DNA of 64,000 nt, from assembly GCF_058153355.1 (NCBI RefSeq), contig NZ_CM177019.1; one strand, 5' to 3'. Below, piece by piece: positions 25,873 through 46,296 of this stretch. Every line of letters begins with the position of its first letter. The first letter of the stretch is position 1. Below the pieces are notes generated by a model. The model did not search any database and was not told the origin of the DNA. It saw only the letters and a list, made by a program, of their open reading frames with translations. Position numbers and translations under genes: made by a program.

Positions 25873-28800
25873 TTAGAACGTTTTCTTGAAGTTCAGCATC
25901 ACGCCTTTATCGCTGATACCATCCTCTTTCCAGTGGTAAGCATCCAGATTCAGCGAACTTTCTTTGCTGCTGTACTTCACGCCGACGCTTGCCAGACTGT
26001 TGATGCCGCCGCCCTTTTGCCCATCATCGACATTAAAGTGCTGGCTGCCTGCGCCTGCCAGGCTTGCCGTGCGCTGGCTCTTCGTGTAGCTCAGGTTCGG
26101 GCCGCCTTCCAGCGTGGCGTTCGCGCTCCAGCCGTCTTTGCCTGCGTAGTCCAGCTTCAGCCCGACGATACTGTCCACCGCCGTTTCGCTGCCGCTGTTC
26201 ATGCTCAGGTTAAAGTCTCCGGCATTACGCTCCTGATAACCGCCTTCCAGCGTGTGACGCAGTTTCACACCCGCATATGGCGTGATTTTCAGCCCTTCGC
26301 GCGGTTCAAAGGTTTTCGCCCCTTCGCTGCGGAACTCCAGGTACTGCTGTTTCACGTTGGTATCCGCCGTTTTGCTAACGTCGCCGTAAGCCACCGAACG
26401 GCTGCTGTCCAGTTGGTGAATATCGTAACGCAGCGCGTTATTCCAGCTCATACCGTTGTCAAAGGACATCTGATGCTTCAGGCCAAAGAACTGGCTGTAG
26501 CCGCCTGTAACACCATTATCACCCGCTTTCTGCGCACCATCGCCGTCCAGACGGGCGATACCGTACTCCAGGCTCATGGTCTGGTTTTCGCTCAGGTCGA
26601 GGGTTTTGCGCAGCGCCAGCATGTCGTACTCGGTATTATTCCCCAGCTCTGCACGCGGATCGCCTTTCGCCACCACGTTAAATGCCAGACCGTTGCCCAT
26701 CTTCGGTGCTGCGTCCGCCAACATGCTGAAGCGGTTACTCAACACGCGGGCCTCACGAAATACCGTGGTAGCCTGGCTCCCGCTGACTTGTTTCAGCGCG
26801 CTGTTCAGCTCTGCAGTGGTGCCAACGTTCAGACTGGTATACAGCTCGTTGTTGGTGTAACCCGCATCCAGCGCTTTTGCCACGTCATTCACTGAGGCAT
26901 CCGTCGCCACATCGGTGTAGGCGTTTTTGCTCATGGTCACGTCAACGTTGCCGCTGGCGTCGGTACTGCCTGTCGCCTGCCAGACAACAGATGTCGAAGT
27001 GATCGCTTGCGCATCAGTCAGGTTGCTGCCTTGCACCACATCATCAAAGCTGACGGTTTTGTCCGCCGTTCCCGCCGCAAAATCGGTGTTGATCTCCACG
27101 CCGTTCATACTGGCGTTATTGAGCATCAGCTTACCGGCGCTACCGTCGGCGTTCGTCCCCACCACGTAACCATTGAGGTTGTTCATGCCATCGTTGCGGC
27201 TAACGGAAGAAGAATGGGTGCCGTCGTATGGCGTAATGGTGGGTTCTTCCGGCGCGGTAAAGTCGACATAGTGCACTTCCGTACCGTCTCCGCCTTCGCC
27301 ACTACCCTCCATCGCCGTGCCAGATTGTTTAATTAATCCGGAACCATTCACGCTGTCGTCAATATAAACAGTGCCGTTGTTAACAATATGACCATTGCTC
27401 CCGAGCTTGCTGAAAGCCCAGGAGTTATTGGCGTAGATATTAATCGTACCGTTGTTTTCAACCACACCATCCGCTTTCGCGTCCGATGCTAATTGCATTC
27501 CAACCATACCTGTATGCGAAGTGCCTTCGCTACCAATATTGATAGTGCCATTGTTGACCATTTTTGCGCTGCCGTGCGCATTCATGGCGATGGTATTATT
27601 TTTATCAATATTGATAGTGCCATCGTTAATTGCCCGGCTACCGGCGTTATTATTTGGCGTCGTAACCTGGCCGTTAATCACACCTGTCGTACCGTTATAC
27701 AACGTATGCCCATTACCGCTGGTAGCGATATCAGCATCACCATTCACTGTACCCCAGTTGTTGAAATGCCCAGCCCAAAGTCCGTTATCAAGAAGATCGA
27801 CAACACCACCGACCAGGTTATTAAAGGTCGCGTTTTTATCAACCGAACCACTGTGAACCGTTCCTGCGTTATTGAAAGTGGCTGCGGCAGAAAAATTCAC
27901 TTTATTGACCGTTCCATCCGCTTCGTTATTCATCACGGCAGAAGCTGAGGCCCCTTTCCAGGCTGTTACCGTCCCGGCGTTATAAAACGTACTGGCCCAT
28001 TGTTCAACAGTGTTCATGGTGCCGGAATTGTTGATAACAGAACCCGCAACGGTTGTACCTACCAACCCGGTCACCGTACCTTCGTTAGTGAACACGCCGC
28101 CATCCACAGAAACGGTTTTTGTCGTGCCCTTATTGGTGTATTCCCCACCGGTTGCGATATCAACCTCATTAATACTGCCCGTGGTTTCATTGACCAAACG
28201 GCCAAAGTCAGCCACGGTGACAGGCCCCCCGGTAACCGTACCCGCGTTGGTTACCAGGGTTTCGGCGGTTGCCGTGATATCAGTCGTACCGCCATATGAA
28301 GACAGGTTAAGCGTTTCCCCGTCAGCCGAAATAATGTCACCATTTCTCCAGCTTAATGAAACAAACCCGTCAGTCGGGTTATAGGCGTTATTGTCCTGGC
28401 ATTTCCCAAAAGTACAGATGGTTCCGTAATTAACAATAGTCCCGCTGCCATCGTTATAGAACGCCTGCCCGTTTTCGGCATTGATATTGATGATGCCAGT
28501 CTGATCATTAATCGCAGTGGCACCATTGTAAACAGCCATGCCGACCAATTTATTTGGCCCCAGCGTATCATCATCATTTTCATTTACTTCCAGATTTATA
28601 GTTCCCTGGTTAATAATAATGTTACCTGGCTTCATCGCGGCCATACCGGCACCGGAATTATAGAGTGTTATTTCACCACCCTGCTGGTTAATGGCGGTAG
28701 AATTAACGCTGGCACCAGAACTGTCTGTACCCACAGCCATCCCGACAGCATAATCTTTGGCGCTGTCATGAGCGATATTGGACGCCAGACTGGAAGTATC

Positions 28801-31371
28801 GTTTTCATCAACCCATAATGCGTCAATGAAAATCTTACCCATATTGTCAATGGTTGAATTATTGGAGGCCAGCATGCCAACACTCCCCCGGCCGTACATT
28901 TGGATCTCACCGGCAGTATTATTTGAAGCGGTGCCATTGTTGCCTGCCGTCATCCCCGTCAGACTAATGACTTGATTATTAAAAATTAAAGGGTCACTCA
29001 AACCTTGAGCGTTCAGACTATTGAAAATACGTCCCTGCGCGAGTACCTTACTGGTGATGGCACTGTTATTAACAACTCGACCACCATAGACGCTCAAATA
29101 CGCAGAACTAGCAGAGTCTGATGTATTCCCCTCTACGCCGTAGATAGAAATCGTTACGTTGTTATTATTTACAGCTAGCGACTCTTCACCAGTAGCCCTG
29201 GCAAAGCCAATATTACCCAGTTCTACATCACCATTATTTATCATCTGCGAACCGGAATTCACCAGTACAACCTGTGATGTGTCACTATTATAATGATCAA
29301 ATGTATTTATATCTTTTAGGATAAAAGTGGCGTTGCGGCCAAGTTCTAAATGGGCTCGGTTATTCAGTTGAATGATATCGCCTAATCCAAGCGGAAAAAC
29401 ACCACTGATTGTTGAATCCCCATTTAGATACAGAGTAGAGTGCCCATCGATTTTGATAACAGGCGTATCGCCATAACCATTACGTTTTAAAGCAGGTGTG
29501 GAGCCATCCTGTAGAGTATTTTCTTCGCCAGCTAAATGGATACCACCATTAATTTCGACGGTATTACCGTCACCCGACACAACCAGACCATTAATATTTT
29601 CCTGGCTGCCATCCATTTCATTATAGATACGAGAAGTGACTTCACTGTCAGCAACAACGGTAAGATTGCCATTTAATACGATATTATTGTCGTGTCCCTG
29701 CACCTGAATGCCAACAGAAGGGGTAAAAAAGTCATTTATTGAATGCTCTCCGGCCTGATTTTTATCCACCAGAATATTACCGGTAATTTCAACTTCATTG
29801 CCATCACCGGCTACATTTACCCCTGTCGCAACACTGCCGGTCACATTAAGCTCATTTGTCGCCAGCGTCATGGCGTTATTATTTCCAGAGACATCCAGAC
29901 CGGTTGAATAATCCCCTACATCCACACGGCCAGCCAGAGAAATCAGACCATCATCTCCGATGATGCGAATCCCGGTACTGAAATTATCAGCAATGATGTC
30001 CCCCACATTGATAAGGGTAGAATGATTACCCTCAATCAGAATCCCTGTCGCATTGGCCTCTGAACTACCATTACTGACGGAAATATCCCCCCTGTTAATG
30101 AACGTCGACGCATCACCACTGAGAGAAACACCCTGCGAATTTTCATCCACGACCGTTATATTTCCTTTGTTGCTGACGATCGCGCCATTACCCTCAACAT
30201 CAATACCCCGTGCAGCATTGCTAACGTATAAATCCCCTTCCTGTATAACCGTCGCATTATTACCAACGATTTTGCTGCCCGTTGAATTTTGCCCATCAAC
30301 CGTCATATGTCCTTTATTATCGGTCCTGACATCATTACCGCTAATAACGGCCCCTATTCCGCCGTTATTGACAGTGGAGTCGCCAGTGTTATTTAAGATT
30401 GTACGATCGCCATTGACGATAACCGCCGTGCCAGCATCGACCACCGTCTGACCGTTATTATTGATGGTTATATTATCGCCGGTCAGGATACCGACCACCG
30501 AACCTTCACCGACAGCCTCTGTTTTACCCTCGTTTGTCAGCGCAATGTTGTTACCATTAATCATCATCACCGTGCCGCCATTCAGGGCCGTGTTACCGCC
30601 CTGGTCAGTGATAATCGCATCATTAACGGTAATTATTCTGCCCGTTGTTCCATCAGACACGACACTGGCTAACTGTGTGACGTGGAGTTTACCTTCGTCA
30701 TCGTAGCGCCATTCCATATCACCTGTGGTACTCACACCACTAAACATGGCGGTATGAGTCTCTTCATGGTTTTCCCACTCAGTCACAATGGTTTTTCGGC
30801 CATCTTTTGCCGTCAGCGTGTAGCTACCATCTTCATTTTGGGTATAAGTGAACGTCGCCCCGCGAATCTTCAGGGTTTGCGCGTCCTCGTCCCATGTCAC
30901 ATTGTTATCAAAGACAACGGGTTCTGTTCTCGGGGGGTCAACATCATCACCGCTATTGTCGGGTGGAGTAACATTACCGCCGTTATCTGGCTTTACAGGT
31001 ATACCTGAATCTTCATCACTGGGAACGGGTAGCGGTAGAGGGCCATTATCATCTGGCGGTATGGGCTGGGGAAAAGAAGAGTGAGCAGAATGATCATTGT
31101 CATGAGACAATTCAATCACTGCGAGTGTTGCCAGTACCGCCGTGGCACCTAATGCCAGTAACGAGCTGAAACCATTATTTGTAACAACAGCACATTTTTC
31201 TGGCACTGTTTTCAACTTCGTTGACGGTCGGGCGTGCCCTTCTGACTGACATGTCATTTGAGAGCTTCTGCGCATACTGTCTGCACTCTCGCCTTCTGTT
31301 ATTTCCGCCCCCCAGCTTTGGCCACTTAACGCTATAGCGATACACGCTGATAATAACGTTTTCTTTTGCAT
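25873..31371 (-). CDS. ydbA: autotransporter adhesin YdbA, intact (signal peptide, long repetitive passenger, C-terminal beta-barrel)
   Basis: single 1832-aa ORF; N-terminal signal peptide; Gly/Asn/Thr-rich repeats; C-terminus ends in aromatic residue (...MLNFKKTF) typical of autotransporter barrels. Confidence 0.85.
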   Translation of the reverse strand: MQKKTLLSACIAIALSGQSWGAEITEGESADSMRRSSQMTCQSEGHARPSTKLKTVPEKCAVVTNNGFSSLLALGATAVLATLAVIELSHDNDHSAHSSFPQPIPPDDNGPLPLPVPSDEDSGIPVKPDNGGNVTPPDNSGDDVDPPRTEPVVFDNNVTWDEDAQTLKIRGATFTYTQNEDGSYTLTAKDGRKTIVTEWENHEETHTAMFSGVSTTGDMEWRYDDEGKLHVTQLASVVSDGTTGRIITVNDAIITDQGGNTALNGGTVMMINGNNIALTNEGKTEAVGEGSVVGILTGDNITINNNGQTVVDAGTAVIVNGDRTILNNTGDSTVNNGGIGAVISGNDVRTDNKGHMTVDGQNSTGSKIVGNNATVIQEGDLYVSNAARGIDVEGNGAIVSNKGNITVVDENSQGVSLSGDASTFINRGDISVSNGSSEANATGILIEGNHSTLINVGDIIADNFSTGIRIIGDDGLISLAGRVDVGDYSTGLDVSGNNNAMTLATNELNVTGSVATGVNVAGDGNEVEITGNILVDKNQAGEHSINDFFTPSVGIQVQGHDNNIVLNGNLTVVADSEVTSRIYNEMDGSQENINGLVVSGDGNTVEINGGIHLAGEENTLQDGSTPALKRNGYGDTPVIKIDGHSTLYLNGDSTISGVFPLGLGDIIQLNNRAHLELGRNATFILKDINTFDHYNSDTSQVVLVNSGSQMINNGDVELGNIGFARATGEESLAVNNNNVTISIYGVEGNTSDSASSAYLSVYGGRVVNNSAITSKVLAQGRIFNSLNAQGLSDPLIFNNQVISLTGMTAGNNGTASNNTAGEIQMYGRGSVGMLASNNSTIDNMGKIFIDALWVDENDTSSLASNIAHDSAKDYAVGMAVGTDSSGASVNSTAINQQGGEITLYNSGAGMAAMKPGNIIINQGTINLEVNENDDDTLGPNKLVGMAVYNGATAINDQTGIININAENGQAFYNDGSGTIVNYGTICTFGKCQDNNAYNPTDGFVSLSWRNGDIISADGETLNLSSYGGTTDITATAETLVTNAGTVTGGPVTVADFGRLVNETTGSINEVDIATGGEYTNKGTTKTVSVDGGVFTNEGTVTGLVGTTVAGSVINNSGTMNTVEQWASTFYNAGTVTAWKGASASAVMNNEADGTVNKVNFSAAATFNNAGTVHSGSVDKNATFNNLVGGVVDLLDNGLWAGHFNNWGTVNGDADIATSGNGHTLYNGTTGVINGQVTTPNNNAGSRAINDGTINIDKNNTIAMNAHGSAKMVNNGTINIGSEGTSHTGMVGMQLASDAKADGVVENNGTINIYANNSWAFSKLGSNGHIVNNGTVYIDDSVNGSGLIKQSGTAMEGSGEGGDGTEVHYVDFTAPEEPTITPYDGTHSSSVSRNDGMNNLNGYVVGTNADGSAGKLMLNNASMNGVEINTDFAAGTADKTVSFDDVVQGSNLTDAQAITSTSVVWQATGSTDASGNVDVTMSKNAYTDVATDASVNDVAKALDAGYTNNELYTSLNVGTTAELNSALKQVSGSQATTVFREARVLSNRFSMLADAAPKMGNGLAFNVVAKGDPRAELGNNTEYDMLALRKTLDLSENQTMSLEYGIARLDGDGAQKAGDNGVTGGYSQFFGLKHQMSFDNGMSWNNALRYDIHQLDSSRSVAYGDVSKTADTNVKQQYLEFRSEGAKTFEPREGLKITPYAGVKLRHTLEGGYQERNAGDFNLSMNSGSETAVDSIVGLKLDYAGKDGWSANATLEGGPNLSYTKSQRTASLAGAGSQHFNVDDGQKGGGINSLASVGVKYSSKESSLNLDAYHWKEDGISDKGVMLNFKKTF

Positions 31372-41326: not shown

Positions 41327-42460
41327 ATGAAAAGCAAAGTACTGGCACTTTTAATTCCTGCCCTGCTCGCCGCAGGTGCTGCACATGCAGCCGAAGTTTA
41401 TAATAAAGACGGCAACAAATTAGATCTGTATGGCAAAGTTGATGGCCTGCATTATTTTTCTGATAATTCAGCGAAAGATGGCGACCAGAGCTATGCGCGT
41501 CTGGGTTTTAAAGGCGAAACCCAAATTAACGATCAACTTACTGGCTACGGTCAATGGGAATACAATATTCAGGCAAACAACACTGAATCTTCAAAAAACC
41601 AGTCATGGACCCGTCTGGCATTTGCCGGACTGAAATTTGCAGATTACGGTTCTTTCGATTACGGACGTAATTATGGCGTAATGTACGACATCGAAGGCTG
41701 GACCGATATGCTGCCTGAATTTGGCGGTGACTCTTATACCAATGCAGACAACTTTATGACTGGTCGTGCCAATGGCGTCGCGACTTATCGTAACACTGAT
41801 TTCTTCGGTCTGGTAAATGGTCTGAACTTCGCGGTGCAGTATCAAGGTAACAACGAAGGAGCCAGTAATGGTCAGGAAGGCACCAACAACGGACGTGATG
41901 TTCGCCATGAAAACGGTGACGGCTGGGGTCTTTCCACAACATATGATTTAGGCATGGGCTTTAGCGCTGGTGCGGCATACACCTCTTCTGACCGCACCAA
42001 TGACCAGGTTAACCATACTGCGGCTGGTGGTGATAAAGCAGACGCGTGGACTGCTGGGCTAAAATACGATGCTAACAATATTTACCTGGCAACCATGTAT
42101 TCAGAAACGCGTAATATGACCCCGTTTGGCGACAGCGATTATGCTGTTGCAAACAAAACCCAGAACTTTGAAGTCACTGCACAGTACCAGTTTGATTTTG
42201 GTCTGCGTCCGGCAGTCTCTTTCCTGATGTCTAAAGGCCGTGACCTGCACGCTACCGGTGGTGCAGACAACCCGGCAGGTGTTGATGATAAAGATCTTGT
42301 AAAATACGCCGATGTTGGCGCGACTTACTATTTCAATAAAAATATGTCCACTTATGTTGACTATAAAATCAACCTGTTGGATGAAGATGACAGTTTCTAT
42401 GCTGCTAACGGCATCTCTACCGATGATATTGTCGCTTTAGGTCTGGTTTATCAGTTCTAA
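41327..42460 (+). CDS. ompN: outer membrane porin N
   Basis: 377-aa ORF with signal peptide and porin C-terminus (...VALGLVYQF); matches OmpN. Confidence 0.95.
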
Positions 42461-42468
42461 ATCCTCCT

Positions 42469-42493
42469 GCCCGCTGTTATGGCGGGCTTTTTC
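42469..42493 (+). terminator. rho-independent terminator of ompN
   Basis: GCCCGC-TGTTATG-GCGGGC hairpin followed by TTTTTC. Confidence 0.65.
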
Positions 42494-42519
42494 TGCTTAT
42501 TCTTCCTCCTTTGATCTAA

Positions 42520-43035
<516 letters not shown>

Positions 43036-43042
43036 CACTAAC

Positions 43043-43067
43043 GCCCGCACATTGCTGCGGGCTTTTT
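43043..43067 (+). terminator. rho-independent terminator of uspF
   Basis: GCCCGCA-CATTGC-TGCGGGC hairpin followed by TTTTT. Confidence 0.65.
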
Positions 43068-43123
43068 GATTCATTTCGCAAATGTGCTGACATTTTCCCC
43101 TCTAATCATTACAATTTAAATTT

Positions 43124-43735
43124 ATGAATTATGCATTGATAATCGCTATTATAATATCGTTCCCCTGTGCATTATTATCAGTTTTTCTGGTATTAAAAGA
43201 CTGGGCGCTAATAGGAGATGCAATGAACCACGCAATGTTTCCTGGCATAGTTCTAGCCTGGATTATAGGTATGCCGCTGGGAATTGGTGCATTTATTGTA
43301 GGACTGTCTTGTGCAATTGCAACTGGCTATCTGAAAGATAATAGCATCATAAAGAAAGATACCATTATAGGTATCGTTTTTTCAGGAATTTTTGTCTTGA
43401 CTATCAACAGGCACAAGTCAGCGGATTACAGATATCATTATTACATTACGGTTTACTCTGCATGGTATCGCCTACCATTTTTGCCACATTAAAAGCAGTC
43501 GGAATTATTCTGTCTATATACTATTAATAGCTCCAGGGTCTATTGCTGTCCTCATCACGCATCGCTTTCATAAGACATTACTTATCGCCGTAACGATATC
43601 AATAACAATATCAGGCGTATGGTTATTATATTTTCTCGACAGAGCCCCAGCGCCGACAATCGTCCTCTTATTTGCTGTAGCATTTCTTTTCGCGCTTATA
43701 ATAATCAATTTTCGGAAACAATAATCTCAACAGTA
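43124..43735 (+). pseudogene. decayed ABC-3 family (Mn/Zn/Fe) transporter permease gene, frameshifted and internally truncated
   Basis: frame of 43124..43492 encodes an ABC-3 permease-like N-terminus (DAMNHAMFPGIVLAW, TIIGIVFSGIFVLTI); permease-like C-terminus (LLIAPGSIAVLITHRFHKTLLIAVTISITISGVWLLYFLDRAPAPTIVLLFAVAFLF) continues in another frame to stop at 43733..43735; AT-rich. Confidence 0.5.
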
Positions 43736-44991
43736 GAATAAAGAGGCAAATCAATCATTACATATATAAGATGGTGCTAATATTGCACCGCCTTTAAATT
43801 GAACTTTATCCTTTCACCCTTACACAATTTAAGGAATGCAGATGACTATTTTATCAGCACCCAGCCTTTTTCCTGGTAATCGAAAACTTGAAAATCATTA
43901 ACTCTAAGAAATTCTGCCAAATCGTTGAAATTACTTTAAATTAGACTCGAACAAATCAACCCCTGATGGGGCTTTTACTTATCCATTTAATCGGGTATAT
44001 ATCGACCTCCATCTGCCCGCCTCAGATTCGTACCTGGTGGAGGTCTTTTTTCGTTACCTCTTTCCCCCTTTAGTTCAGTATAAAATCATCAAACTAATGC
44101 TGTTCACACTATTTACCTCCAGCATTCTATATAAATAATAGAAATAAAAACCCCAATACATAGTGCATTGGCATGACCAAACATCAATGCCATTATACTC
44201 GCCTCTGTTAAATACTCGCTAGTTAATATGATAGGCACGCATGATATAACAATCCATATGCTAATACATAAATACACCAGTATTTTTCTCATAGTCAGTC
44301 CCTGTGATTAACAATCAAGGCATAGTTAAGCATATTTCACATTCAAACGTAAACATTATTAATAACATTATGTCAATCGAACTGACATCACGATTCAAGC
44401 CCTCTTCAGACTGAAGGCTAGAGCAGCGTAGAACATTTCAAAACAATACACTGAAAAAATACTTGAACAAAAAACTTAATTCTTTTTTATTGTGAACTTT
44501 AGTAATTTTGTCATGCAACTCTTTATTACATTTAGGCCTATCTTATTTCATGGCAACGCAAATACAGGACCATTTCTTGTGCTATGGATAAGTAATAAGC
44601 TAGTTACATCTTATTAAGAGAACCATTTTCACATATCAAAATATCATCACCACCCACAATGAATTAAGTATTTTTCTTATTCTTTAGATTAGATACGTAA
44701 TGAATCCCTAACTCCATTCGGGTGTCATGGCTCTTTCATTTGAAATACATTCATATCCAATGTAATATTTCTATGCGCAAATATAACTACCGACCATACT
44801 CATCATTTATTACAGAGAATTATTTTATTCACCGAAAAGTTTCACAAAATATCCCCTGATAGAAAACTAAAAAACACTGCATAATATCGCTATTCTGGCA
44901 CTTGCGAAAAATTATATTCTGCACCTGTTGTAGCGTTCTATTTCTCCGCCTGGCAACGAATGCACAATGTCCGCCACAGTTTCTGTTCTAA

Positions 44992-45309
44992 TTTCTTCCT
45001 GTGTTACCGCATCCTGTACGGGTAGCGCAACACCAGCATGCTAAGCAAGGCTTTCCCATCAGATTTCACTACGACTATTTGGGAGCGAGATGGAATGCAG
45101 CAGTAAAACGTGCTGGTATTCGCCGCCGTAATCCGTACCATACGCGACATACTTTTGCCTGCTGGCTGTTGACGGCAGGAGCGAACCCGGCATTTATAGC
45201 CAGCCAGATGGGGCATGAAACTGCGCAGATGGTGTATGAAATTTACGGTATGTGGATTGATGACATGAACGACGAACAGGTAGCTATGTTGAATGCGCGG
45301 TTATCGTAG
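44992..45309 (+). pseudogene. 3' fragment of a tyrosine-recombinase (Rac-type prophage integrase) gene
   Basis: open frame encodes only the integrase C-terminal catalytic region (RRNPYHTRHTFACWLLTAGANPAFIASQMGHETAQMVYEIYGMW) with no N-terminal domains; directly upstream of ttcA where K-12 carries intR. Confidence 0.7.
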
Positions 45310-45360
45310 TTGCAAAGTTTGCCCCCAATTTGCCCCATTTAGTACCAGAGAACTGAAATA

Positions 45361-46296
45361 ATGCAAGAAAATCAAAAGAATACGAAGAAAGAGATATACA
45401 ATCTGAACAAATTACAAAAACGTCTGCGTCGTAACGTGGGCGAAGCCATTGCTGACTTCAATATGATTGAAGAAGGCGATCGCATCATGGTTTGCCTCTC
45501 CGGGGGTAAAGACAGCTATACCATGCTGGAGATTCTGCGCAATTTGCAGCAAAGCGCGCCAATCAATTTTTCGCTGGTGGCTGTTAACCTCGATCAAAAG
45601 CAACCGGGCTTCCCGGAACACGTTCTGCCCGAGTATCTTGAAAAGCTGGGCATTGAGTACAAGATTGTGGAAGAGAACACTTACGGTATCGTGAAAGAGA
45701 AGATTCCGGAGGGCAAAACCACTTGCTCACTGTGTTCTCGTCTTCGTCGCGGAATTCTTTACCGTACCGCAACGGAACTGGGAGCGACGAAGATCGCGCT
45801 GGGTCACCATCGTGACGATATCCTGCAAACGTTGTTCTTAAATATGTTCTACGGCGGCAAGATGAAAGGTATGCCTCCGAAACTGATGAGCGATGATGGC
45901 AAACATATTGTGATTCGTCCGCTGGCCTACTGCCGCGAGAAAGATATTCAGCGCTTTGCCGATGCAAAAGCGTTCCCGATTATTCCTTGCAACCTGTGCG
46001 GTTCACAGCCTAACCTGCAACGTCAGGTGATTGCTGACATGTTGCGTGACTGGGATAAACGTTATCCGGGGCGTATCGAGACGATGTTCAGCGCGATGCA
46101 GAATGTGGTGCCGTCGCATCTGTGCGATACCAACCTGTTCGATTTCAAAGGCATTACCCACGGTTCTGAAGTGGTTAACGGGGGTGATCTGGCGTTTGAT
46201 CGCGAAGAGATCCCTCTACAACCGGCGGGTTGGCAGCCTGAAGAAGATGAAAATCAGTTGGATGAGTTACGACTGAATGTGGTGGAAGTGAAATAA
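45361..46296 (+). CDS. ttcA: tRNA-cytidine(32) 2-sulfurtransferase
   Basis: 311-aa ORF with PP-loop SGGKDS and CxxC motifs; matches TtcA. Confidence 0.95.

Follow-up and report, generated by a model that had tools for sequence, protein, structure and literature searches.

A probable sitD remnant within a prophage scar between uspF and ttcA of Escherichia coli

Phage-borne sit operons and the ttcA attachment site

The Rac prophage of E. coli K-12 is integrated at ttcA, carries ynaE, ynaM and pinR at its uspF-proximal end, and contains no sit genes. For the sit island of Shigella, Fisher et al. reportedly described phage-like flanks in 2009. The sitABCD genes are known as a moron, an accessory gene cassette, of lambda-like coliphages, and occur on 70% of the lambda phages from infant-gut E. 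coli (PMC6969025). The phage Perceval of strain LF82 bears sitABCD (PMC9928086), and the "PAI sit" island is unstable and deletion-prone and has been found at several chromosomal sites (PMC7545054). In our own phage DNA comparison, sitABCD was found in many phage records.

An arrangement of this kind with intact genes is found at ttcA in strain K12a, from which we took the intact comparison genes (locus L003). There, uspF is followed by a ttcC-like attR, by sitA, sitB, sitC and sitD, and then by prophage tail fibre genes, all in the orientation of the fragment described below. The element in ttcA is thus a lambdoid prophage with the sitABCD operon at its attR end, and a uspF-sitA junction of the same type is common to 495 E. 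coli genomes.

Here we describe the corresponding interval in a 64,000-nucleotide stretch of E. coli DNA, referred to as the window, in which uspF (42601-43035) and ttcA (45361-46296) are separated by a 2.2-kb prophage scar at the ttcA attachment site. When positions 43036-45360 were compared with the loci L003, L004 and H183, at least four states of the uspF-ttcA interval could be distinguished in E. coli: empty, occupied by Rac (K-12), occupied by a prophage with intact sitABCD (495 genomes), and reduced to the scar (1044 genomes). From these four states it follows that the attachment site has been occupied repeatedly. The order in the window is uspF, a sitD fragment (hereafter sitD'), a DUF1627 fragment, an integrase fragment and ttcA, with uspF abutting sitD'. 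The features, in window coordinates, are as follows.

43036-43107, plus strand: uspF downstream flank, chromosomal, including the uspF terminator hairpin (43043-43062); left side of the junction
43106-43396, plus strand: sitD' piece 1, in the frame of 43124; SitD residues 9-103, first transmembrane segments; 68 of 95 residues identical
43397-43398, plus strand: internal deletion junction; 169-bp gap relative to sitD (SitD residues 104-161); frame shift of -1
43399-43518, plus strand: sitD' piece 2, in the frame of 43399; SitD residues 162-201; 34 of 40 residues identical
43519-43521, plus strand: site of a 1-bp deletion, TCTATAT-ACTATTA in the sitD alignment; second frameshift
43521-43724, plus strand: sitD' piece 3, in the frame of 43521; SitD residues 203-271; 42 of 65 residues identical
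43742-44940, no strand assigned: AT-rich filler, 31-37% GC, always co-occurring with sitD' and present only in the same 1043 genomes
44948-45066, minus strand: prophage early-region gene fragment (DUF1627/DUF977-like); Pfam DUF1627, E 1e-9, near 44950-45040
45079-45309, plus strand: C-terminal fragment of a Rac-type tyrosine integrase, 77 codons; PHROG integrase, E 1e-22; attL side

The position of sitD', between uspF and the phage DNA with the integrase at ttcA, and its orientation both agree with the intact sit-prophage examples, and the setting resembles that of the sitABCD moron and "PAI sit", where attR-proximal sit genes lie beyond the tail fibre genes of a prophage in ttcA. Unlike those, the window keeps the 2.2-kb scar alone; the divergent sit allele may have been carried by the same type of phage. 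With Rac the scar has the integration site in common, and 283 bp of the window (45078-45360) are 99.3% identical in DNA to the intR region of phage Rac-SA53; unlike at Rac, the attR/ttcC fragment is deleted. The NCBI annotation pipeline PGAP calls the fragment directly upstream of ttcA a partial integrase. The DUF1627 fragment is about 75% identical in DNA to prophage DUF977 genes, and PGAP labels it "DUF1627 domain-containing protein", partial and frameshifted. The first-pass annotation had placed no such gene at this K-12 locus, and this was borne out, as Rac without a sit gene is found there. The absence of an ATPase or binding-protein partner nearby was likewise upheld, since tblastn with SitA and SitB over the whole 64-kb window gave nothing better than E values of 0.08-0.4.

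Neither Pfam nor PHROG gave a domain in any frame of the AT-rich filler; phage DNA yielded no homolog of it, and its DNA matches are confined to the 1043 E. coli genomes that bear the scar. Remnants of sit partners, or domains of any kind, were sought in the 1.2 kb downstream of sitD', where only the DUF1627 fragment was found. The filler has a strongly negative GC skew, is left unannotated by PGAP, and holds a hydrophobic ORF of 59 codons on the minus strand (44113-44292). An Rfam scan of 42400-45500 gave sub-threshold matches only; among them, a match to the Salmonella sRNA STnc420 at 44445-44495 on the plus strand (26 bits, with the gathering score at 70; E 0.036) is probably due to chance.

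Three pieces of a permease gene

We find that the feature beside uspF is very probably a non-functional remnant of sitD, the gene for the second membrane-permease subunit of a SitABCD-type Fe2+/Mn2+ ABC importer, and we hold the overall reading, that of a sitD remnant within a prophage scar at ttcA, with the same high confidence. The first-pass annotation had proposed a decayed ABC-3 permease gene (ZnuB/MntB/SitD-like) at 43124-43735, in AT-rich DNA and split over two frames. The family assignment proved correct and can be narrowed to the SitD type, as both the profile and the tblastn check returned ABC-3 and SitD matches on every piece, and the DNA is indeed AT-rich, with a GC content of 37-39% over the feature. 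The number of frames has to be revised, as an ABC-3 (PF00950) permease gene on the plus strand at 43106-43724 is split over three, the third containing a middle piece of 40 residues (SitD 162-201). In the Pfam scan, beside which the three forward-frame translations of 43124-43741 were made, frame 1 matched at 43124-43402 (E 1.4e-25, 90.8 bits, profile positions 5-98), frame 3 at about 43405-43524 (E 2.8e-6, 27.5 bits, positions 157-191) and frame 2 at 43521-43724 (E 1.1e-7, 32.1 bits, positions 193-257). Each match is significant and above the PF00950 gathering score of 20.1 bits, and the three are collinear on the profile, from which we conclude that this is a true feature rather than an ORF that arose by chance in AT-rich DNA. 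The membrane domain they make up is incomplete: profile positions 99-156 are missing, the pieces lie in three frames, and the N-terminus is cut.

That the central part is missing had been seen correctly. It corresponds to SitD residues 104-161 and appears as a 169-bp alignment gap against E. coli sitD at columns 401-569; as 169 equals 3×56+1, the deletion moves sitD' from frame 1 to frame 3. For the frame break, previously placed at about 43400..43500, the break itself stands, but two separate lesions account for it: the deletion junction, near 43397/43398, and the loss of 1 bp near 43519-43521, the latter moving sitD' from frame 3 to frame 2. Both outer limits shift as well. The downstream end is the TAA stop codon of piece 3 at 43722-43724 rather than 43735, and the pseudogene called by PGAP ends at the equivalent position. 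The upstream limit lies before 43124, since homology begins at about 43106, where sitD' reads S-L-Q-F-K-F-M and SitD reads P-L-Q-F-T-F-M, and ends on the upstream side at a TAA at the 5′ junction. The ATG at 43124 is thus equivalent to SitD Met14, and the gene is truncated at its 5′ end too: sitD' lacks codons 1-7 as well as the operon promoter and the sitABC genes that would be expected upstream.

The 5′ junction itself could be placed by comparison with K12a. The uspF flank matches the K12a downstream sequence exactly up to ...CCCCTCTAATC (at about 43107) and then diverges, and the identity with native uspF-downstream DNA runs to CTCTAATC, where it is joined to sitD codon 8. In K12a the same flank continues into the native ttcA upstream region, the ttcC-like fragment (attR) and then sitA. 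Measured against that arrangement, the window would have lost attR, the expected sitA, sitB and sitC and the first seven codons of sitD, about 3.1 kb in all. The joining of the two sequences also formed a sigma-70-like promoter match across the uspF/sitD' junction (43087-43115, plus strand, CTGACA-17-TACAAT, 10/12), which is a consensus match only and is situated 9 bp before the ATG at 43124.

Affinity and divergence of the allele

SitD of E. coli, Shigella and Salmonella (YfeD-type) belongs to the same family and is the same subunit as the product of sitD', with about 70% amino-acid identity across SitD residues 9-103, 162-201 and 203-271, and the motifs PCALLSVFLVLK, DYQQAQVSGL, LHYGLLCMVS and APAPTIV are kept in both. 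The two differ in that sitD' alone is 5′-truncated, lacks residues 104-161, is frameshifted twice and stands without sitABC. At the DNA level the identity to sitD is just 68-73%, and the GC content at third codon positions is 0.58 in sitD and 0.33 in sitD'.

Two other sources for the sequence can be weighed against these data. A remnant of another ABC-3 system, of the ZnuB, MntB, SitC or YfeC type, could be suggested from NCBIfam, where sitD' gave generic AztB, SloB and ZnuB matches; these lie far below their cut-offs, and they are only generic because no SitD-specific model was returned. With E. coli SitD as the tblastn query against the whole window, the three pieces showed 72%, 74% and 59% identity (E 1e-43) with scores of 150, 72 and 76 bits, whereas SitC gave 36% and 43% identity at 77 and 48 bits (E 2e-18), its similarity within the 64 kb being confined to the sitD' fragment. 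sitD' is thus nearer to SitD than to the paralogous SitC. The best 120 protein matches to sitD' are SitD-type permeases, and in the 5,426 complete E. coli genomes the divergent DNA matches are only to sitD, at about 68% identity, among the matches listed; in the distant-mode DNA search of E. coli the match takes up about 176 more bases on the sitD side than on the side of the query. We dropped SitC, ZnuB and MntB as identities on the higher SitD tblastn scores and the sub-threshold NCBIfam matches, and regard an origin from such a system as very improbable. Somewhat less remote, yet still very unlikely, is that an ordinary E. coli or Shigella sitD decayed in place, its AT-richness and 30% divergence arising from AT-biased neutral mutation. 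E. coli SitD proteins are indeed among the closest intact relatives, and relative to sitD there are 122 GC-to-AT changes and 36 in the opposite direction. Against this, codon positions 1/2/3 account for 42/22/135 of the differences from E. coli sitD, synonymous sites have reached saturation (pS 0.84, against a pN of 0.16), as expected from a long divergence under purifying selection, and the 200 homologous codons are free of in-frame stops. This pattern indicates that most of the divergence arose while the gene was functional. Furthermore, the alleles of the genomes that carry the scar are only about 0.3-1.5% apart, and over 202 alignment columns sitD' shows 64-70% identity to each of the intact family members found, which among themselves reach 71-99% (median 83%). 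The distribution over codon positions, the comparison of pS with pN and the absence of stops largely refute decay in place of a modern sitD, which was dropped.

We therefore read sitD' as a distinct low-GC sitD lineage that diverged under purifying selection, rather than as a decayed copy of modern sitD. It is an outlier to all intact SitD found. No intact relative above about 70% identity was found in a database of 5.8 billion proteins, and none was detected in 100,044 species-representative (GTDB) genomes by a lineage-specific peptide scan. A gapped DNA pattern requiring the deleted segment gave 0 matches in the JGI metagenomes, and the search of IMG/VR for an intact relative gave a single match, which is the same scar and has the 169-bp deletion, the 1-bp deletion and the 5′ junction. 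Within the complete E. coli genomes, phage records and viral contigs, the sitD' allele was found neither outside the scar nor linked to phage structural genes.

Carriers, proposed history and possible function

The scar fragment occurs in 1044 of the 5426 complete E. coli genomes; in 1034 of them its length is practically that of the window copy (660-662 bp, compared with 661 bp). The carriers include LF82, NRG 857C, 536, UTI89, Nissle 1917, F11 and O25b:H4 ST131; the named reference strains among them we take to belong to phylogroup B2. Base-by-base alignment took in seven of the about 1034 full-length alleles, and three founding lesions, namely the 5′ truncation, the 169-bp frameshifting deletion and the 1-bp deletion, are common to the window and the six other alleles. 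Further lesions are lineage-specific, with an additional T in LF82 and FDAARGOS_536 and a missing C in A25, and the database variants P0001 and P0091 contain different fused ORFs. Of the 21 SNPs within the homologous frames, 5, 10 and 6 are at codon positions 1, 2 and 3, respectively, as expected under neutrality. PGAP labels the equivalent of window positions 43124-43724 "metal ABC transporter permease, frameshifted", so that the sitD' pseudogene as such is not new; in the literature searched we found no mention of this particular pseudogene. In the urinary isolate CFE299 (locus L007, 3433-4554) the pseudogene is interrupted by ISEc40 (IS630-like), and there PGAP artefactually annotates the C-terminal piece of 56 codons as an intact CDS for a "metal ABC transporter permease" (WP_349771454.1).

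These population data also bear on whether sitD' is a pseudogene at all. If the frameshifts were errors of assembly or sequencing, the gene would be intact, an outcome named in the first-pass annotation as a refutation, and we found no evidence in favor of this. A copy of the same length is present in 1034 independent complete genomes, the deletion junctions are identical in the seven alleles and on the IMG/VR contig, and repair of the frameshifts would still leave 58 residues and the N-terminus missing; on the population data we consider an artefact ruled out for practical purposes. A different suggestion is that the 122-codon ORF at 43124-43492 has been retained and is expressed as a small membrane protein, for instance as a three-helix modulator of SitCD or of other ABC-3 permeases. 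The ORF is open in the window, in 536, in ST131 and in UID2309220013, and the promoter-like site with its 10 of 12 consensus matches lies just upstream. On the other hand, its ATG is an internal SitD methionine with no evident Shine-Dalgarno sequence upstream, the SNPs show no excess at third codon positions, and the frame is broken by separate frameshifts in LF82 and FDAARGOS_536, in A25 and in variant P0091. Because the N-terminal ORF has been disrupted independently in other strains, a retained function is in our view highly unlikely. For sitD' as a non-functional remnant, without operon promoter, partner subunits and a complete membrane domain, we expect no function, although the site at the junction, judged by its match to the consensus, may allow low-level expression of the three-helix fragment. 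Just as doubtful as a retained function is a more far-reaching proposition, in which sitD' would be the only surviving trace of an unsampled low-GC SitABCD lineage on ttcA phages and its N-terminal ORF would interfere with SitCD. This is a joint proposition: the lineage would once have been carried on ttcA-integrating phages of the carriers' ancestor, and the three-helix fragment would be expressed from the junction promoter, the target being a functional SitCD permease carried elsewhere in strains with an open N-terminal ORF.

The first-pass annotation had considered the gene a probable fragment of a metal-uptake operon acquired by lateral transfer, and had suggested a search for an intact operon at the uspF-ttcA junction. 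The intact sitABCD on the prophage in ttcA of K12a, with its junction in 495 E. coli genomes, answers that search and supports the suggested origin. From this arrangement and the lesions described above we infer the following order of events. A lambdoid or Rac-type prophage with a divergent, low-GC sit operon would have entered ttcA in an ancestral strain of the lineage to which the B2 reference strains now belong, the operon being situated next to uspF at the attR end of the integrated temperate phage. A deletion of about 3 kb could then have removed the DNA from 72 bp past the uspF stop codon, through attR, sitA, sitB and sitC, to codon 8 of sitD. The 169-bp frameshifting deletion would have taken SitD residues 104-161, and the 1-bp deletion would have added the second frameshift. 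Finally, at least one large deletion would have removed nearly all of the prophage, leaving the 2.2 kb with sitD', the 1.2-kb AT-rich filler, the DUF1627 fragment and the C-terminal integrase fragment. Since then, sitD' would have been inert and drifting neutrally, gaining further strain-specific frameshifts and the IS insertion. As the filler between sitD' and the integrase fragment matches nothing known, successive elements could also have built the scar.

Identification of sitD' accounts for the unusual AT-rich DNA next to uspF as a prophage scar and points to the ttcA attachment site as a place repeatedly occupied by sit-carrying phages. As the founding lesions are shared, the scar can serve as a convenient and stable marker of the lineage that carries it. 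sitD' implies neither a new mechanism nor a new function; what is mildly new is a sitD lineage without a sampled intact relative, the divergent allele hinting at an unsampled branch of Sit transporters.

We also point out a very large ORF upstream of the locus, on the minus strand at 25873-31371 (1832 codons). Its counterpart in strain 536 is a 7.8-kb gene labelled "EntS/YbdA MFS transporter", a label that looks mis-annotated, the product looking instead like a large surface or autotransporter-type protein.
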